Source: Candidatus Yanofskybacteria bacterium RIFCSPHIGHO2_01_FULL_41_21
GTDB taxonomy: Bacteria > Patescibacteriota > Minisyncoccia > 2-02-FULL-40-12 > GWA2-44-9
DNA length: 64,000 bases
NCBI GenBank assembly: GCA_001794025.1
Contig: MGJA01000003.1
Span: 12,909-76,908 of the forward strand
Reading direction: 5' to 3'
A program made the translations under genes and the position numbers. Each line of letters starts with the position of its first letter. Position 1 is the first letter of the stretch. The notes below the pieces were generated by a model, which ran no database searches, had not been told where the DNA came from, and was given only the letters and a program-made list of their open reading frames with translations. Positions 2,219-62,110 of the stretch are shown here, one piece after another.

Positions 2219-2827
2219 TTAGCTTTTATTTGGTTTAACTAAATCTAAAAATTTTTGGACGTCTTTAGAGAGGCGAATATGATATTTTACCTTTTGATTC
2301 CATTTAGAATTTATCGGTGGCTTAATTGTATAAAGTTTTGGAGTAAAACCAAGGGAAGTAATAAGTTGTTTGACCTCATTAGCTAGTTGTAAATTAATAG
2401 TGCTAAAAATAACCATTTTATAACCACGATCTAAATATATTGAACCATCGGTTTCAATGAGTCCTTTCAAATAATTTATTCGGTGATCTTTATTATCAAA
2501 AATCCATTTCGGCGTAGAGACATTCTGTGTATATTTTGAACCTAACCCAACTTTCCATCCGAGGATATTTTCTAATTGATTTGAGTATACCATGACATCA
2601 GCACATGTTTTTCTATCATAAACACCGATTCTGTTTTTAGGGAGGAGAAGTTGAAGTGATCGCGATATTCTTTTTATCAGATCTGGATATTTTTTATCAC
2701 AGGTTATTCTTAGTCGGGTAGCTCGTCCATTTGGGTTAGAAAGATTACCATCACCTATAGCTAGACCGATGATATAGGCCCGAAGATTTTTATCGTCACT
2801 AATAGGTAGTGTTCGATAATAAGACAT
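2219..2827 (-). CDS. LAGLIDADG family homing endonuclease (double-motif), free-standing next to tRNA-Leu
   Basis: LAIGDGNL and LIETDGSIY motifs. The track ORF extends to 2950 only by reading through the tRNA; the ATG at 2827 (MSYYRTLP...) sits 1 nt after the tRNA 3' end. Confidence 0.7.
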   Translation of the reverse strand: MSYYRTLPISDDKNLRAYIIGLAIGDGNLSNPNGRATRLRITCDKKYPDLIKRISRSLQLLLPKNRIGVYDRKTCADVMVYSNQLENILGWKVGLGSKYTQNVSTPKWIFDNKDHRINYLKGLIETDGSIYLDRGYKMVIFSTINLQLANEVKQLITSLGFTPKLYTIKPPINSKWNQKVKYHIRLSKDVQKFLDLVKPNKS

Positions 2828-2828
2828 G

Positions 2829-2914
2829 TGCCGCTGGTGGGAGTCGAACCCACATGGCCGTGAGGCCGAACGATTTTGAGTCGTTTGCGTAAAACCAGTT
2901 CCGCCACAGCGGCA
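2829..2914 (-). tRNA. tRNA-Leu (anticodon CAA) with long variable arm
   Basis: Reverse complement gives acceptor GCCGCTG/CAGCGGC, anticodon loop CTCAAAA, variable arm CGGCCTCACGGCCATGT and T-arm GGGTTCGACTCCCAC. Confidence 0.8.
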
Positions 2915-30403: not shown

Positions 30404-30477
30404 GCCACCTTAGCTCAGCTAGCCAGAGCAGCGCATTCGTAATGCGAAGGTCCCCAGTGCAAATCTGGGAGGTGGCT
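30404..30477 (+). tRNA. tRNA-Thr (anticodon CGU)
   Basis: Acceptor GCCACCT/AGGTGGC, D-stem GCTC/GAGC, anticodon loop TTCGTAA, T-stem CCCAG/CTGGG. Confidence 0.75.
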
Positions 30478-30589
30478 CATTGAAACTAATCTTAGAATTA
30501 GGTAAACTTAATGGGCCAGGTAGTAGAACCTCTATCTGCAACCTGGCGGTTGCACAGACCAAATTAATAGAGGTTCACATACCTGGTAA

Positions 30590-31327
30590 ATGTTGGAATA
30601 CGAGAACAATAAGGCTCTTTTATATATCTATTCTGGGGCCGGTGGCGTGGATGCTCAGGACTGGGCGTCCATGTTGCTTACAATGTATCGCAAATACTCG
30701 GCCGATAAAGGTTGGGGTTTTGTGATATTGAGTCAGACATTTGGCGAACAGGAAGGTACCAAGAATGCCGTTATAGAAATAACGGGACCGAATTGTTATG
30801 AAATGCTTCGTCGGGAATCCGGTGTTCATCGTCTAGTTCGTATCTCGCCGTATTCTTCAAAGGATTTGCGTCATACTTCGTTCGCGTTGGTGGAATTTAT
30901 GCCCGAGATTATTGCGAAGAATTTTCAAATCAATCCTAACGATTTGCGGATTGATACGTATCGGTCATCAGGGCCTGGCGGGCAGAATGTTAATAAACTG
31001 GAAACGGCAGTCCGGGTTACTCACGTGCCGACGGGCTTAGCAGTCGCGGTTCAGTCCGAACGGTCTCAAGCCCAAAATAAAGAAAAAGCGATGCAGGTAT
31101 TGAATTCACGTCTTGCCGCAAAAATGGAAGCCGAGAAGACACAAGAACTTTCCCAGTTAAAGCCCCAAGTCGCAATTGAGTGGGGCAGTCAAATCAGGTC
31201 CTATGTCTTGAATCCGTATCAGATGGTGAAAGATCATCGGACAGGCGTAAAATCAAGCCAGCCGGACAAAGTACTCAATGGCGATTTAGATAAATTTATA
31301 GAAGCAGAACAATCTCTAGCTTATTAA
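30590..31327 (+). CDS. prfB: Peptide chain release factor 2 homolog lacking N-terminal domain 1 (245 aa)
   Basis: YSGAGGVDAQDWASMLLTMYRKY (RF2-specific), SPY(F)...RHTSF, and GGQ (SSGPGGQNVNK). An in-frame TAA lies immediately upstream of the ATG. No CTT TGA C frameshift site is present. Confidence 0.75.
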   Translation: MLEYENNKALLYIYSGAGGVDAQDWASMLLTMYRKYSADKGWGFVILSQTFGEQEGTKNAVIEITGPNCYEMLRRESGVHRLVRISPYSSKDLRHTSFALVEFMPEIIAKNFQINPNDLRIDTYRSSGPGGQNVNKLETAVRVTHVPTGLAVAVQSERSQAQNKEKAMQVLNSRLAAKMEAEKTQELSQLKPQVAIEWGSQIRSYVLNPYQMVKDHRTGVKSSQPDKVLNGDLDKFIEAEQSLAY

Positions 31328-31387
31328 CTTATTAGCTTATTAGGAAAAACCTAAAAAGCTAGAAAGCTGATAAGCTAGTAAGCTAAA

Positions 31388-32068
31388 GTGATTGAATTAA
31401 AAGATGTTTCTACAATTTATGAGGATTTTTTAGCGCTGGATGGCGTTAATTTAGAAATTAAAGATGGCGAATTTGTTTCGCTTGTCGGCCCGTCGGGCGC
31501 CGGTAAGTCCACACTCTTACGTCTGATGACCCGCGAATTGAAACCCAGTCAAGGTGAGATATCCATTGACGGTATCAATATCGCCGAACTTACCAATAAA
31601 GAAATACCGTTGCTTCGTCGTAAGATTGGAACGATATTTCAGGATTTTAAATTATTGTCCCGCAAAAATTCTTTTGAAAATGTTGCCTTTGCCCTTGAGG
31701 TCTCCGGCGCCGAAGCCGAAGAAATTAACGAAGATGTCCCTAAGGTTTTAAATATTGTCGGTCTAACCGATAAAGCCAAGAATTTTCCTCATCAGATGTC
31801 GGGTGGCGAAAGACAACGCTTGGCTATTGCTCGGGCTTTAATTCATCGTCCCCGCATTCTTTTGGCCGATGAACCGACCGGTAATCTGGATATGCTCAAT
31901 GGTTATGATGTGGTAAAATTATTAATGAAAATCAACGAATTCGGCACGACCGTTATTCTGGCGACGCATAACCGCGAAATTGTAAATATTGTCGGTCGAC
32001 GTGTTATCAGTATGGAAAAAGGCAAAGTGGTTCGCGACCAAATTGAGCAAGGGAAATATATAATATGA
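31388..32068 (+). CDS. ftsE: Cell division ATP-binding protein FtsE (GTG start)
   Basis: Walker A GPSGAGKST, ABC signature LSGGERQR, Walker B ILLADEPT. Confidence 0.85.
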   Translation: MIELKDVSTIYEDFLALDGVNLEIKDGEFVSLVGPSGAGKSTLLRLMTRELKPSQGEISIDGINIAELTNKEIPLLRRKIGTIFQDFKLLSRKNSFENVAFALEVSGAEAEEINEDVPKVLNIVGLTDKAKNFPHQMSGGERQRLAIARALIHRPRILLADEPTGNLDMLNGYDVVKLLMKINEFGTTVILATHNREIVNIVGRRVISMEKGKVVRDQIEQGKYII

Positions 32069-32973
32069 AGAAAGCATTTAAAAGAATTTTTAGAACCGGG
32101 TGGCTTAATTTTAAACGTAATAGTTATCTTTCTTTTGGCACGACCGGCGTGATGGCTTTGGTTTTGCTTTTATTTTCCGGTTTGATGGTTTTAAATTATA
32201 TTTCGGGACAAATCGTAACCGGCCTGGAAGACAAAGTTGACGTTAGTGTTTATTTTAAAAATGATGCCTCGGAAGATCAGGTGATATCGGTAAAGCAAGA
32301 TCTTGAATCCCAACCGGCCGTGGCTCGAGTAACCTATATTTCCAAAGACCAGGCCTTGACTGATTTCAAAGCCAAACATGCCGGTGATGCTTTAATTCAA
32401 CAATCACTGGCCGAATTAACCGATAACCCCTTACAATCGTCGCTCAACATTAAAGCCAAGGAGTCCACTCAATACGCTTCTATCGTTACTTTTCTGGAAG
32501 GCAACAAATTGCGGCCCGTCATTGATAAGATTAATTTTTATGAAAACGAAGCCATCATTAATCGCGTCCAGGGTATTTCTCGCGGGGTCGGCAATTGGGG
32601 TCTGGTGGCGACACTTATTCTGGCTTTCATTGCCGTTCTAGTAACCTTTAACACGATTCGTTTGACCATCTACAATCAAAAAAATGAGATTGAAATTATG
32701 CGTTTGGTCGGCGGTTCCAATTGGCACATCAAAGCCCCGTATCTTATTGAAGGGGGATTGTATGGCGTCTTTGCATCTTTAATAACTATCGCCGTCTTTT
32801 ATCCAACCCTCTGGTTTATATCTTCAAAAATTGGCATTCTTATTCCCGATGTTTCCCTTATCGGTTATTTTGTGGCCAATGTTTTTCAATTTATTCCCAT
32901 TATTTTTGCACTGGGGATTGCGTTGGGGGTTTTGTCCAGCTATATAGCGATAAGAAGGTTTTTGAGAGTGTGA
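32065..32973 (+). CDS. ftsX: Cell division permease FtsX
   Basis: 4-TM FtsX topology. Overlaps the ftsE stop. Confidence 0.8.
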   Translation: MKKAFKRIFRTGWLNFKRNSYLSFGTTGVMALVLLLFSGLMVLNYISGQIVTGLEDKVDVSVYFKNDASEDQVISVKQDLESQPAVARVTYISKDQALTDFKAKHAGDALIQQSLAELTDNPLQSSLNIKAKESTQYASIVTFLEGNKLRPVIDKINFYENEAIINRVQGISRGVGNWGLVATLILAFIAVLVTFNTIRLTIYNQKNEIEIMRLVGGSNWHIKAPYLIEGGLYGVFASLITIAVFYPTLWFISSKIGILIPDVSLIGYFVANVFQFIPIIFALGIALGVLSSYIAIRRFLRV

Positions 32974-46872: not shown

Positions 46873-47562
46873 TTATTGATAGTCAGGCGAGTTGCGATAG
46901 ACGAATTTTTTAAATTTAGACCAAGTGGTCTTTGGTTTTTTGATGACTTGAATAACCTTGCCGTTGACGAGGTAGTTATCCATGTCATCGCGGTGAATGA
47001 AGATGGGGGAGAAACTGGCGCTGGATTCGGAAAGAAGGATAATACGTTTATTGTCGGTGTCTTTAAAATAGCGTTTAATGTTGGCCATGCCATCAATGAT
47101 AGACAGAACATAGTCGCCATTTTTTATAACCGTACAGGTCGGGTCTACAAGAACATAGTCGCCATCTTCAACCGAAAGACCGTTAATGTTGGCCTTATTC
47201 ATGGAATGGCCGGAGGCCTTGATGGCGAAGATGCCTTTTTTCTTGCTTAGTAGTTTACCTGAAACTCGGAGATAACCTTCGGCTTCTTGGTCGGCATACG
47301 CTGTGGCCGGGCCGCAATTGGCGGTGCCCAAGATTGGTATGGCGAGGAGGGAGCTTTTGGCGGTGAGGCCGGGGCGGGTCTTGACCATGACTTTGGTGAG
47401 GCGATCCAATTGAATGAGACCATTTTTCTCAAGCTGAAGGATGTGGTGTTTGATTTTCTGGGGTGATGTTTCATTGATGTATTTTCCTATTTCCCGCAAA
47501 CTCATGTCGGCGATATTTTCCTTTCCGGCTAACGCTAATATTTTTTCTTGTAAGATGTGCAT
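46873..47562 (-). CDS. lexA: LexA repressor (wHTH + S24 peptidase)
   Basis: N-terminal wHTH, cleavage-site region AIPILGTANCGPA, and catalytic S/K (GHSM...K). Confidence 0.8.
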   Translation of the reverse strand: MHILQEKILALAGKENIADMSLREIGKYINETSPQKIKHHILQLEKNGLIQLDRLTKVMVKTRPGLTAKSSLLAIPILGTANCGPATAYADQEAEGYLRVSGKLLSKKKGIFAIKASGHSMNKANINGLSVEDGDYVLVDPTCTVIKNGDYVLSIIDGMANIKRYFKDTDNKRIILLSESSASFSPIFIHRDDMDNYLVNGKVIQVIKKPKTTWSKFKKFVYRNSPDYQ

Positions 47563-47581
47563 CAGGTAGTAGAGATTCGAC

Positions 47582-47794
47582 TTACCGCAATAGGTAATCC
47601 CGTAACCTCCGTTTAATCAATCTCGAACCTTGATTTGTTTTTAAATACTCTTCTCTGCGCTGTGCATCATTAAATTTTAGACACGCTTCACAATAAATAA
47701 TGTGCCACGGTCTACCAGATTTAGTTGACCTATTGCGGCCTTGATTATGTTCCGATAATCTTCTCTCTAGATTAACAGTGTATCCGATATACAA
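47582..47794 (-). CDS. GIY-YIG nuclease-family small protein (YhbQ-like); likely extends upstream to ~47839 with a non-canonical start
   Basis: Annotated from TTG. The in-frame upstream sequence encodes FHYVYILENKDRELYIGYT (complete GIY-YIG motif) back to a TGA, with no ATG/GTG/TTG; only ATT/ATA are available. Confidence 0.55.
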   Translation of the reverse strand: MYIGYTVNLERRLSEHNQGRNRSTKSGRPWHIIYCEACLKFNDAQRREEYLKTNQGSRLIKRRLRDYLLR

Positions 47795-48033
47795 TTCTCT
47801 ATCTTTGTTTTCTAAGATATAAACGTAGTGGAATATAATCTTGTCGAATCTTCACTACCTGACTATGTGTCAAGTATATCATTTTGAGTTGTCCACAGTC
47901 AAATGGACACTCTTGACAGGTTGTTCACTTTGATAAAATTAAGATCCTTCCCTGTAACAATTTCTGAGGTCTTGCGTCTTAACTGTAAAGCAATTTAATT
48001 AAGACGAGGTCTGTACTTGTCCCTATAATATAT

Positions 48034-53778: not shown

Positions 53779-53933
53779 TTCTCCCCATGATCAGGTAGTG
53801 AAAATCCGACAGGGTTACATCTAGCGCCTGTCGTATAATTTACTATTCTGGTAATGTTTGACCTATTTAAATTAATTCGTACTCTGCGTATTCAGGTGCA
53901 ACCTGAGGCGCATGTCGGATTTCTACTACCTGG

Positions 53934-58666: not shown

Positions 58667-61600
58667 ATGTCTAATCCTTTAAACGGAACTCGTCCGGTTT
58701 TTGTAAAAACCGTGTCAGTTCTCACTTCGGTAGCGACCATGTTGTCGTTATCGGGAGCGGCCTACCTTGCGCCTTTAACAGCGGTGGCGGCTGTTCCGTC
58801 CGATTATGGCCTTACAGAAGGCAACACGATTAGCGCTTCAGGAACAAATGATCCTGATGTCTATATCGTAAACGAACTTGGATACAAGAGATTGTTCTTG
58901 AATCCAGTTATCTTTGGTTTCTATGGTCACCTTGGCGGTTTCGCTAATGTGAAGAGTGTTACTGCAGCTGCCCGCGACGCTTTCCCGACTTCTGGTTTGT
59001 TCCGCAATTGCGAAACGAATGCTCAACAGGTCTGGGCCGTTGAAGTAACTGCTGAAGATACCGGTGTCTTCCATAAAGTTGTAATGTCAGGCGACCAAGC
59101 TGTTGCCGAAGATGCCAACTTTTTCAAGAAGGTGTTCTGTATCAATAACAACGAACAGAATTGGTATCCAAAAAGTTCAGTTGATTACACTTCATTAAGT
59201 CAGGTTCCGGTTTACGCTCGTGTCCCGGGTGCAACCCCAACCCCAAGCTATGGAGCGTTGTCAGTCGGTTTAGCATCATCTAATCCTGCTTCCGGCACGA
59301 TTGTTGATGGTCAAGCCAGATATAACTTGGCCGAGTTTACATTTACTGGTGGCGGAACCGTTAATTCTGTTAAATTAAAAAGAATTGGTGTTTCTGCTGA
59401 TGCTTCATTAACAAATGTTTATTTGTATGATGGCACCAGGAGATTAACTGATTCAGCCACTGTTTCCAGTAGTGAAATATACTTCAACGATGCTGGTGGT
59501 TTATTCACTGTAGCCGGCGCCAAGACCATATCAGTTATGGCTGATGTTGACGGCTCTTCAGGTGAAACAATCGGTGTCCAGCTTATTGCTTGGAACGGAA
59601 ACACTGTAAGTATTTCCGGCAACTTGCATAATATTGCTACCGCCACATTGGCGACAGTTGCTTTAGCTGCGCTTACTGCCCCAGCCGATGCTACCAACGA
59701 TGGTGTTGATGAAACCGGTGTTGCTCAAGAACCGGCAAATGATGTTGTCGTTTGGAATGATACCGTTACTGTTGGTCAGAGGTATGTTTGGTTGAAATCG
59801 GTTCAACTCAGAGTTGTTGGTTCAGCAGGAGTTGATGATGTTCAAAACTTCCGACTTATGGTTGATGGTGTCTATGTTGGCTCTGCTATCGCTCGACGTG
59901 ATGCTGTTAGTGGATACATAGTATTTGACTTGACCGGCGCCCCAGTTAAATTAGAAACCGGCGGTCGTATTATAAAAGTGGTCGCAGATGTTGTCGGTGG
60001 TTCCAGTAAGGATTTCCATCTCTCCTTGAGACAGAAGTCCGATATTTGGGCCGTTGATTCCCAGTACTCTGCTGCCGTATTGGCAACAGGTACATTCCCA
60101 ATTGGAGATGTTGACAACGAATTAGAAATTTCAGCCGGTACTTTGACCGTTACCAAGACGACTGATTCGCCTTCCGGTGATGTTGTTAAAGATGCTTCCG
60201 GTGTTGTCTTAGCTCGATTTGAGCTCAAGGCCGCCGGTGAAAGGATGAAGATTGAAAACCTTCGCATCAACAATACCAGCGATGTTGCATCATTATCATT
60301 TAGAAATGCTGCCTTATTCGCTAATGATGGTATGGGTGGTGGTATGGTTCAGGTTGGTTCAACCACAACTCTTTGGGACGATGAGACCGTAACCGCGTCA
60401 AACAGTACCAAGTATGCGGAAGTTTCCTTGGGATCTTCATTGATTGTTGATCCGGGCAAACCACGTCTATTGGAAATTAGAGCAGATATCTTTGATTCTA
60501 CTGGTACCAACAACGTTGCGGCTAACCAAACATTTGCCGCGCAAATCGCAGTCGGTTCGTCCAACGTCCAACGCTTGACGACACTGGACTACGTTAATGG
60601 TCCAAGTTCTGTTAAGACCGGTACGACATTGACGATTAAGACAGGTTCATTATCAGCCGGTAAATACACCGGTTATGCTAACCAGTCGGTTGTTGATCCG
60701 AAGAATAATGTCAAAGTTGGTCACTTCACAATAACGGCTGCTTCTTCTGAAGACGTTAATATCAGCTCAGTTGATATAATGCCTCAGTTGGTAAGTGGTA
60801 CCAGTTTTGATGGTGGCGAACTTGATGATTCGTATGTCGTAATCAAGAATGATCTTGGTGCGACGATTTACACTTCACCGATCAAGGCCGCTATGTCCGA
60901 GAGTGCCAGTTCAAGCTTCTCAACGAACTTCACATTGCCCAAGAACAAGACCTATCAAGTTGAGGTTTGGGCAAATGTTGATTCCGGTATTACCGCGACT
61001 GACGCAGTCCGACTCGTATTCAGCGCCACTGGAACAACGGCTGGTTCAAGTACATCCAGCACTTCAGATGTCGTAGTTGGTCAGACGATAACTTCTCAAA
61101 CAGGTTCATTGTCTAAAGCCAATGGTTCCTTGCCGGCTGCCCGCTTGATAAATGGTGGTACTACAGTAACTGGTTACCAATTCACTTTGACACCAACCTA
61201 TGATGACTTCTATCTTGACGAGGTCTATGTTGACCTTTCAAGTACAACAGCATCATCTACAGGTGCAGTGTCAAATCTTATCTTGAAGAATGGTGGTACA
61301 ACCCTTGCTTCAGCGACAGTAAGTTCAACCACCGGCTCGGCTTCATTCACTGGTCTTAATTTGTTGATGAGCCAAGCAGGCGGAACTCAGACCTTTACTG
61401 TTGATGTAGTGTTGGCTAATGTCGGTGTCGGAGCAAACGATACCGCCGGTGTTGTCACCGTCCGCTTGGATGGCTTGAAATACCGAGATAGTGCCGGATC
61501 AATCACCACTGAAAATGGTTTTGCTCCTGGAACTTATGGCGGTAATGCTAACAACGTGGTCAAAGGTTATCCGACCTTTACTAATGCCTCGTTACCTACA

Positions 61601-62110
61601 ACCACTTTAAGCGCCGGTTCAATGGTCTTGTTTAAGACCGTCGTCAGTGCCACGGGTGGCCAAGTAGCATGGAATAACATTACCTTCACGGTGGCATCAA
61701 ATTCTGGTCTTATCACCATCGCCACCAGTTCTTATCAGATTTGGGAGAATGGTGTTGATATCACTGCCGATTCCGTCGGTGCTACGGCCAGCGACAGTTA
61801 CAGTGGTAGTAACGACCGAATAGAGTTCAGCTTCGCTACAGAGCGTGCTATCTCTGTTGGTAGTCCGTCTACCATTGAATTGAGAGCGACCGTTGGTGGC
61901 ACTATTTCAGCCGGTAACTCGGTTAGTGTCCAGGTTGCCAATCCAAAAGGAACAACTGTATCCGTTGATGATTCTACAAATCAACAGGATTCCGGTGCTT
62001 CCTTCGTCTGGTCTGATCAATCATCTCCATCTCATGCCACTACTACGGATGACTGGTTCACTGATGGTCTAGTCAAGACATTGGCCGCTACTCAAACGGT
62101 TACGAAGTAA
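58667..62110 (+). CDS. Large secreted cell-surface protein (1147 aa; beta-rich repeats) with N-terminal conserved ~150-aa domain
   Basis: Signal/TM at the N-terminus. S/T/G/V-rich repetitive beta-strand composition. The N-terminal domain is shared with the C-terminus of the next protein. Confidence 0.6.
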   Translation: MSNPLNGTRPVFVKTVSVLTSVATMLSLSGAAYLAPLTAVAAVPSDYGLTEGNTISASGTNDPDVYIVNELGYKRLFLNPVIFGFYGHLGGFANVKSVTAAARDAFPTSGLFRNCETNAQQVWAVEVTAEDTGVFHKVVMSGDQAVAEDANFFKKVFCINNNEQNWYPKSSVDYTSLSQVPVYARVPGATPTPSYGALSVGLASSNPASGTIVDGQARYNLAEFTFTGGGTVNSVKLKRIGVSADASLTNVYLYDGTRRLTDSATVSSSEIYFNDAGGLFTVAGAKTISVMADVDGSSGETIGVQLIAWNGNTVSISGNLHNIATATLATVALAALTAPADATNDGVDETGVAQEPANDVVVWNDTVTVGQRYVWLKSVQLRVVGSAGVDDVQNFRLMVDGVYVGSAIARRDAVSGYIVFDLTGAPVKLETGGRIIKVVADVVGGSSKDFHLSLRQKSDIWAVDSQYSAAVLATGTFPIGDVDNELEISAGTLTVTKTTDSPSGDVVKDASGVVLARFELKAAGERMKIENLRINNTSDVASLSFRNAALFANDGMGGGMVQVGSTTTLWDDETVTASNSTKYAEVSLGSSLIVDPGKPRLLEIRADIFDSTGTNNVAANQTFAAQIAVGSSNVQRLTTLDYVNGPSSVKTGTTLTIKTGSLSAGKYTGYANQSVVDPKNNVKVGHFTITAASSEDVNISSVDIMPQLVSGTSFDGGELDDSYVVIKNDLGATIYTSPIKAAMSESASSSFSTNFTLPKNKTYQVEVWANVDSGITATDAVRLVFSATGTTAGSSTSSTSDVVVGQTITSQTGSLSKANGSLPAARLINGGTTVTGYQFTLTPTYDDFYLDEVYVDLSSTTASSTGAVSNLILKNGGTTLASATVSSTTGSASFTGLNLLMSQAGGTQTFTVDVVLANVGVGANDTAGVVTVRLDGLKYRDSAGSITTENGFAPGTYGGNANNVVKGYPTFTNASLPTTTLSAGSMVLFKTVVSATGGQVAWNNITFTVASNSGLITIATSSYQIWENGVDITADSVGATASDSYSGSNDRIEFSFATERAISVGSPSTIELRATVGGTISAGNSVSVQVANPKGTTVSVDDSTNQQDSGASFVWSDQSSPSHATTTDDWFTDGLVKTLAATQTVTK

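Follow-up and report, generated by a model that had tools for sequence, protein, structure and literature searches.

We found that Candidatus Yanofskybacteria bacterium RIFCSPHIGHO2_01_FULL_41_21 carries a release factor 2 (RF2) gene whose product lacks domain 1 altogether. The gene lies in a 64,000-nucleotide stretch of contig MGJA01000003.1 (positions 12,909 to 76,908, forward strand), referred to here as the window. It is most probably the lineage's ordinary prfB, encoding the class-I release factor for UGA and UAA, from which the ancestral loss of codons 1 to ~118 took both domain 1 and the programmed +1 frameshift site. What the protein retains is the codon-recognition superdomain (domains 2 and 4, with an SPF/SPY tripeptide) and the GGQ-bearing domain 3. 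Coordinates of the features discussed are collected in Table 1.

A first-pass annotation of the window, made from its letters, had described the gene as an RF2 homolog without domain 1 or the frameshift site, preceded by a tRNA-Thr and by an in-frame TAA just ahead of the start, and all of this was borne out. Read from the sequence, the protein begins MLEYENNKALLYIYSGAGG, and because the in-frame TAA abuts the ATG, an N-terminal extension in the RF2 frame is ruled out. Profile comparison of RF2 with PrfH had been suggested as a check. The open reading frame (ORF) scored 341.1 bits against NCBIfam prfB (TIGR00020), matching profile positions 112-350 of 353, while the prfA profile gave 222 bits and the PrfH profile (TIGR03072) 111.4 bits, the last below its cut-off of 166.65. 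The ArfB model matched residues 108-143 only, with 49 bits against a cut-off of 100. Pfam PCRF was matched only at positions 96-194 of its 194, and the RF-1 domain was also present (residues 111-217). The closest solved structures were those of RF2, with the alignment beginning at their residue ~118-122, and among sequence matches in the PDB, RF2 (E = 5e-67) ranked ahead of RF1 (8e-50) and of PrfH chains (1e-18 to 1e-16). An AlphaFold2 model of moderate quality (mean predicted local distance difference test score 66), which served solely for confirming RF2 as the best fold match, had RF2 as its top match (E = 5e-21). A six-frame search of the window with a domain-1 hidden Markov model (HMM) gave no match in any frame, and the overlapping 81-aa ORF at 30480-30725, which had been judged unlike RF2 domain 1, has no Pfam match. 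The window gene has no CTT TGA frameshift site, though its sister genes carry one.

The catalytic and recognition motifs are in place, as the first-pass annotation had stated: GGQ at residues 130-132, and SPY at residues 86-88 where RF2 has its 'anticodon' SPF. All 36 clade members that were aligned have GGQ, which was called invariant in the truncated clade along with SPF and the switch loop, the switch-loop region being canonical. SPY itself was confined to the window and to three relatives, L007, L021 and L031 (L numbers denote the loci compared here), with SPF everywhere else in the alignment. We considered SPY as a specificity change linked to truncation and rejected this, as the other truncated genes carry SPF and the full-length genes of L021 and L031 also carry SPY. 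It appears from the alignment to be a sporadic, conservative variant that is incidental here.

The truncation recurs in relatives, which the first-pass annotation had listed as a point to check, and marks a clade of tiny, Yanofskybacteria-like groundwater Patescibacteria. The identical protein is found on 22 independently assembled contigs (ENA and JGI) that reach 170 kb and do not differ in gene context, and ~35 distinct relatives from many samples, with 68-92% identity, share its domain boundary, their start codon lying 2-3 residues ahead of a conserved YE-x-NKALL motif. In a search of 5.8 billion proteins, the best 120 matches were all 236-275 aa long with 72-92% identity, and came from metagenome-assembled genomes (MAGs) of Patescibacteria, Parcubacteria and Yanofskybacteria. 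For comparison of loci we gathered 80 from species-representative genomes and 80 from metagenomes, with 171 loci (1.7 Mb) in all. Thirty-nine of the loci were without any domain-1 HMM match.

The surroundings of the gene are those of prfB. The window RF2 has tRNA-Thr and a DUF2784 membrane protein upstream, ftsE downstream and no RtcB neighbour, and the order lepA, DivIC-like gene, tRNA-Gly, tRNA-Thr, RF2, ftsE, ftsX, tRNA-Gln is common to truncated and closest full-length loci. RF2-ftsE-ftsX synteny extends over truncated, short and full-length Patescibacteria loci and is also seen in Actinobacteria. A tRNA-Thr stands directly 5' of RF2 genes of all three lengths (L007, L014, L020, L021, L024, L026, L034, L035, L040 and L041), and this is the arrangement ancestral to Patescibacteria. 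In neighbour-joining trees of domains 2-4, the only trees made, the main truncated clade (35 distinct sequences including the window) was monophyletic in 88% of 300 bootstraps and was placed among full-length, frameshift-bearing Patescibacteria RF2 genes. The truncated clade lies at a mean distance of 0.735 from outgroups and its full-length sisters at 0.718, so truncation has not come with a faster rate. The domain-1-less RF2 is under strong purifying selection: the ratio of nonsynonymous to synonymous substitution rates (dN/dS) between the window gene and L007 is 0.063, and in more distant members, where synonymous sites are saturated, ~80% amino-acid identity is kept. Judged by its locus and its place in the tree, the window gene is the positional ortholog of prfB and was vertically inherited. 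An inverted repeat at 31316-31378, with 29-nt arms that are 83% complementary and a 5-nt loop, is built of repeated AAGCT/AGCTT units and takes in the stop codon of RF2 together with most of the spacer ahead of ftsE.

Stop codon usage indicates a need for RF2 activity. By counts that rest on ORF-based gene calls, the 56 long ORFs of the window (G+C 40.7%) end in TAA (29), TAG (20, 36%) or TGA (7, 12.5%), in agreement with the earlier statement that TGA is a stop here. The ftsE gene ends in a TGA that overlaps the ATG of ftsX, and the long ORFs are without in-frame TGA. Since TGA ends genes it is a working stop, and RF2 activity is therefore needed; the frequent use of TAG likewise implies an RF1.

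Some observations weigh against taking the gene for the lineage's ordinary prfB. Its score falls short of the TIGR00020 trusted cut-off of 370, a shortfall that corresponds to the 111 absent N-terminal profile positions. TGA ends 38 of the 274 genes in truncated-clade loci (13.9%) versus 20.1% in full-length sisters, a lower use that is not significant (p = 0.12). Finally, its status as the sole RF2 copy is one we infer from orthology and selection, with ~84 kb of the genome read (the window, L172 and L173). We also asked if a weaker RF2 might show itself in the lower use of TGA and set this aside, the difference being a trend only.

The alternative that survives best, which we nevertheless regard as unlikely, is an accessory or rescue paralog resembling PrfH, normal termination being left to a canonical prfB of full length at some other place in the genome. 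Such a paralog would fit an architecture of domains 2-4 only, as in PrfH, and the names that NCBI gives to relatives ('peptide chain release factor-like protein' or 'PCRF domain-containing protein'), and it draws on the fact that only ~84 kb of the genome is covered. However, the PrfH profile score lies below its cut-off and far below the prfB score, and the gene has tRNA-Thr and ftsE/ftsX for neighbours instead of RtcB. It occupies the prfB position of the full-length sisters and nests in their tree, its SPF/SPY and switch-loop region are canonical, and its rate is not accelerated. No second release-factor gene was found in the window (by tblastn), in the 171 loci, in 10-kb extensions on either side, or in the ~84 kb of genome. 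Profile scores, prfB locus, nested tree and purifying selection thus agree with the first-pass annotation, which had likened the architecture to PrfH and still taken the gene for RF2.

Gracilibacteria and Absconditabacteria have given up UGA as a stop, and a gene decaying in a lineage on the same path would also be a conceivable source of a truncated prfB. TGA being the rarest stop, both in the window and in truncated-clade loci relative to the full-length sisters, speaks for decay. We give this very little credence: dN/dS is 0.063, with GGQ, SPF and the switch loop invariant, ~35 distinct sequences are intact, the difference in TGA use is not significant, and TGA still ends genes cleanly, as in the ftsE/ftsX overlap.

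A split RF2, in which domain 1 persists as a separate small protein that joins in trans, seems just as improbable. An earlier proposal gave PrfH a partner that replaces domain 1 (PMC1586002), and a similar arrangement could be imagined here. Against this, the domain-1 HMM was negative in all frames of the 39 truncated loci (320 kb, the whole window included) and of L167-L173, and tblastn with domain-1 peptides from sister genes was also negative. A profile search of 5.8 billion proteins for stand-alone domain 1, which is weak because word-based selection of candidates limits its reach, returned eight hits, and the four inspected were pieces of full-length genes at contig ends, running into domain 2. 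In addition, the conserved Glu221 becomes Lys upon domain-1 loss. That a normal prfB only seems to have lost its 5' part, through an error in assembly, sequencing or gene calling, has a negligible probability, even though frameshifted prfB genes are frequently miscalled, given the identical sequence on 22 contigs from separate ENA and JGI assemblies (which disposes of the sequencing error that the first-pass annotation had named as a possible refutation), the same boundary in ~35 distinct sequences from many samples, and a tRNA-Thr only 111 nt upstream of the start codon, which leaves no space for ~350 nt of extra coding sequence.

The closest relatives show what the ancestral gene probably looked like. 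Frameshifting by +1 in prfB is common, though not universal, and sister loci L014-17, L019-23, L025, L028, L030, L034, L035 and L041 have a CTT TGA N site at about codon 22. These sites are preceded by a Shine-Dalgarno-like GGGAGCGG or GGCGGGCGG; the sisters keep GGGAGCGG there even though a motif of Shine-Dalgarno type was seen at only 1 of the 56 window genes. A domain-1 HMM of 122 positions, built from 66 frameshift-bearing genes, sorted the loci into those with full-length, short or no domain 1. Genes of the short, or half-length, class match only HMM positions ~25-70 of 122, have an N-terminus of 45-60 aa comprising a helix with a PDFW motif, and are without the frameshift site. One large short-form clade has 100% bootstrap support and includes MAGs of Zambryskibacteria and Taylorbacteria, and separate short forms stand beside full-length genes, L122 with L017 (100%) and L114 with L112 (72%). 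Half-length forms therefore appear, from the tree, to have arisen at least three times. L129 and L131 are without domain 1 but are not placed in the main truncated clade, with support of 5% and 2%, and at least two complete losses of domain 1 beyond the main clade seem to have occurred. For the main clade, the simplest reading of how the truncation arose is a single deletion that would have run from a leaderless start to the domain 1/2 boundary, keeping the promoter while removing domain 1 and the frameshift site.

A substitution in domain 4 goes with the complete loss. All 35 members of the main truncated clade have Lys at residue 221, where RF2 that keeps domain 1 has Glu (95% of 43 full-length and 15 of 15 half-length proteins). 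Among independent truncations, L131 and P0178 have Lys at this position and L129 has Glu. The pattern points to coevolution of domain-4 position 221 with domain 1. At residue 235 (31292-31294), Lys is present in 97% of the truncated clade, and Glu is the commonest residue elsewhere. Charge reversals at 221 and 235 thus appear to track complete domain-1 loss.

These observations raise the broader possibility, which we advance only tentatively, that domain 1 is dispensable across Patescibacteria (class Paceibacteria). It would have been trimmed at least three times to a helical stub of ~50 residues and deleted outright at least three times, the outright deletions going with a convergent Glu-to-Lys change in domain 4. 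The reduced ribosomes of these bacteria might no longer use delivery through domain 1, bL12 and uL11, nor recycling assisted by RF3. A natural minimal RF2, translated from a leaderless GUG mRNA and free of frameshift feedback, might then be the sole decoder of UGA, and RF1 may follow the same trend.

The start of the gene also bears on its expression. A sigma-70-like promoter lies directly behind tRNA-Thr, with a predicted transcription start near 30515, and the interval 30479-30589 consists of this promoter, a 71-nt palindrome and the TAA, with the ATG next. The homologous promoter, a near-consensus TTGAAA-16/17-TATAAT, is conserved in 18 or more truncated loci and there ends 6 (sometimes 7) nt before a GTG, the GTG being 2-3 codons ahead of YE-x-NKALL; most members of the truncated clade are of this kind. 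In full-length sisters the -10 box, often of TGnTAnAAT type, ends 6-7 nt before the ATG. A -10 box ending this close to the start codon implies a leaderless mRNA. The 6-7 nt distance was seen in truncated loci L008-L013, L088-L113 and L167-L170 (GTG) and in full-length loci L014-L021, L112, L116 and L119 (ATG).

The first-pass annotation had reported a structured leader of ~110 nt. A strong fold is indeed present, but there is no single leader of that length; the region is the promoter followed by the palindromic insert, which contains three nested helices. The 122-nt leader folds at -38.7 kcal/mol (z = -4.2), with 0 of 200 shuffles as stable, and the 71-nt palindrome alone at -33.5 kcal/mol. 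L007, which is identical to L087 and has 92% protein identity to the window RF2, retains the outer stem as well as the CCTGGCGG loop, and its middle stem has a wholly different sequence with its pairing preserved. The palindrome was absent from all truncated-clade loci other than the window, L007 and L087, for example from L088 and L167-170 (82-88% identity), and the loci without it are leaderless; it is therefore a recent insert of this lineage and not a general feature of truncated RF2. We therefore rejected the hairpin as a conserved regulatory leader or known RNA, as it is absent from the rest of the clade and has no Rfam match even at E <= 10. In the window species and its nearest sister, the insert separates the -10 box from the start codon, now ATG, and the mRNA should begin with a stable hairpin.

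The termini of the insert, CCAGGTAGTAGAA, recur at 53792-53933 and at ~47563-47875. The first of these is a 143-nt palindrome abutting the ATG of a tRNA_bind-domain gene (53934), and the second an element of ~313 nt that encloses a GIY-YIG ORF (47582-47794, minus strand; Pfam E = 3.7e-13) and abuts the ATG of a LexA-like gene (46873-47562, minus strand). The termini of this family of elements (71, 143 and ~313 nt) read (C/T)CAGGTAGT(A/G)(G/A)A. An ATG lies within 0-4 nt of every terminus, and in three cases it is the true start codon of a gene (that of RF2, of the tRNA_bind-domain protein and of the LexA-like protein). The family looks like miniature, mobile elements, resembling miniature inverted-repeat transposable elements with an autonomous relative. 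The copy at 53792-53933 was considered as an rplK (L11) leader and rejected, as the downstream gene encodes the tRNA_bind-domain protein.

How could an RF2 without domain 1 function? The protein is predicted to bind the A site, recognise the stop codon and hydrolyse peptidyl-tRNA in the normal way. It would act without the contact that domain 1 makes to the uL11/bL12 stalk and without any interplay with RF3 that depends on domain 1, and it may leave the ribosome spontaneously. The gene has retained the ancestral promoter behind tRNA-Thr, and frameshift feedback on the RF2 level is lost. The expected costs would be slower recruitment to the ribosome and the absence of this feedback. Work on E. 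coli provides a precedent: by the summary of Mora et al. 2003 given in PMC1586002, domain 1 of the E. coli factors is dispensable in vitro for codon recognition and hydrolysis, and cells can grow, if slowly, on truncated factors. A link between domain 1 and RF3 has been made (PMC1586002), the C-terminal domain of bL12 bridges RF1 domain I to uL11 and aids delivery to the ribosome, and RF1 without domain I is still recycled by RF3 (both PMC6076264). The E. coli truncation work makes termination at UGA and UAA without domain 1 plausible, and we infer that this is what the window protein does.

Table 1. Features of the RF2 locus in the window (positions are those of the 64,000-nucleotide stretch), with the half-length RF2 loci among relatives in the last two rows.
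Feature	Position	Strand	Basis or remarks
tRNA-Thr (anticodon CGU)	30404..30478	+	ARAGORN; Rfam, 56 bits
Sigma-70-like promoter: -35 TTGAAA 30480-30485, 17-nt spacer, -10 TAAACT 30503-30508	30480..30508	+	Consensus scan
71-nt palindromic insert, three nested helices, between -10 box and start	30516..30586	+	Folding, comparison
In-frame TAA abutting the RF2 ATG on its 5' side	30587..30589	+	Sequence read and upstream walk
Domain-1-less RF2 coding sequence (domains 2, 3 and 4 only)	30590..31327	+	Profile and structure matches; 245 aa, ATG start
SPY tripeptide, residues 86-88, at the RF2 'anticodon' SPF position	30845..30853	+	Alignment
GGQ peptidyl-tRNA hydrolysis motif, residues 130-132	30977..30985	+	Inside Pfam RF-1 domain
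Lys221, domain 4, clade-specific; Glu in RF2 keeping domain 1	31250..31252	+	Alignment
ftsE (31388-32068) and ftsX (32065-32973)	31388..32973	+	Pfam; conserved downstream partners of prfB
Half-length RF2 loci: L026, L029, L036, L039, L040, L055, L114, L122			
Half-length RF2 loci, continued: L133, L135, L136, L142, L151, L156, L159, L162			

Elsewhere in the window, a LAGLIDADG-type homing endonuclease ORF (~2219-2913, minus strand; Pfam assignment) adjoins a tRNA-Leu(CAA) identified by tRNA scan (2828-2913, minus strand), and no Pfam family is recorded for a 1147-aa ORF (58667-62110) or for several of its neighbours (358, 521 and 503 aa).

Compared with known systems, the window protein is closest to canonical RF2, with which it shares domains 2-4 over their full length (45-60% identity), an SPF-type tripeptide, GGQ, the switch-loop sequence and the prfB-ftsE-ftsX context, and the genes most closely allied to its own encode full-length RF2 by way of the CTT TGA frameshift. 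It differs from canonical RF2 in being without ~110-118 N-terminal residues and without +1 frameshift autoregulation, in having Lys and not Glu at residue 221, and in a score under the trusted cut-off. PrfH (RFH; TIGR03072, 200-245 aa) is also without domain 1 and combines a domain resembling the codon-recognition domain with GGQ; unlike the window protein, it has an altered 'anticodon' region and lies in an operon with rtcB immediately upstream. Because the window protein scores below the PrfH cut-off and has no RtcB neighbourhood, its likeness to PrfH is architectural only. The distribution of PrfH is sporadic, by horizontal transfer (PMC1586002, PMC6514570). ArfB, ICT1 and C12orf65 have the GGQ domain in common with the window protein, which gave 49 bits to the ArfB model; unlike it, they have no codon-recognition domain and use a C-terminal tail, which is basic in ArfB. 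We found no description of a domain-1-less RF2 in the literature on release factors and termination in Patescibacteria, the candidate phyla radiation (CPR) or Parcubacteria, and none is listed in a broad release-factor survey (PMC6514570).

The nearest counterparts are engineered. N-terminally truncated E. coli RF1 and RF2 have the same architecture of domains 2-4, and as far as the summary of that work goes, they show codon-specific release in vitro and slow growth. Those are laboratory constructs, and the cell that hosts them is adapted to RF3 and to the bL12 stalk. The window form, unlike them, is naturally fixed, long kept and accompanied by co-occurring substitutions such as E221K, which provides a specific lead on coevolution. 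Domain 1, a near-universal helical domain at the N-terminus, has been treated as constant in RF1 and RF2, and its role is debated; interplay with RF3, delivery through bL12 and uL11, and stabilisation of the compact form have all been proposed (PMC1586002, PMC6076264). The classical frameshift autoregulation of prfB, for its part, can evidently be lost outright. Labels such as 'release factor-like' and 'PCRF domain-containing' could make genomes seem to be without RF2 and so mislead inference of the genetic code in CPR bacteria. The truncated, half-length and full-length forms found in neighbouring lineages make up a natural series of variants with which the role of domain 1 may be probed.

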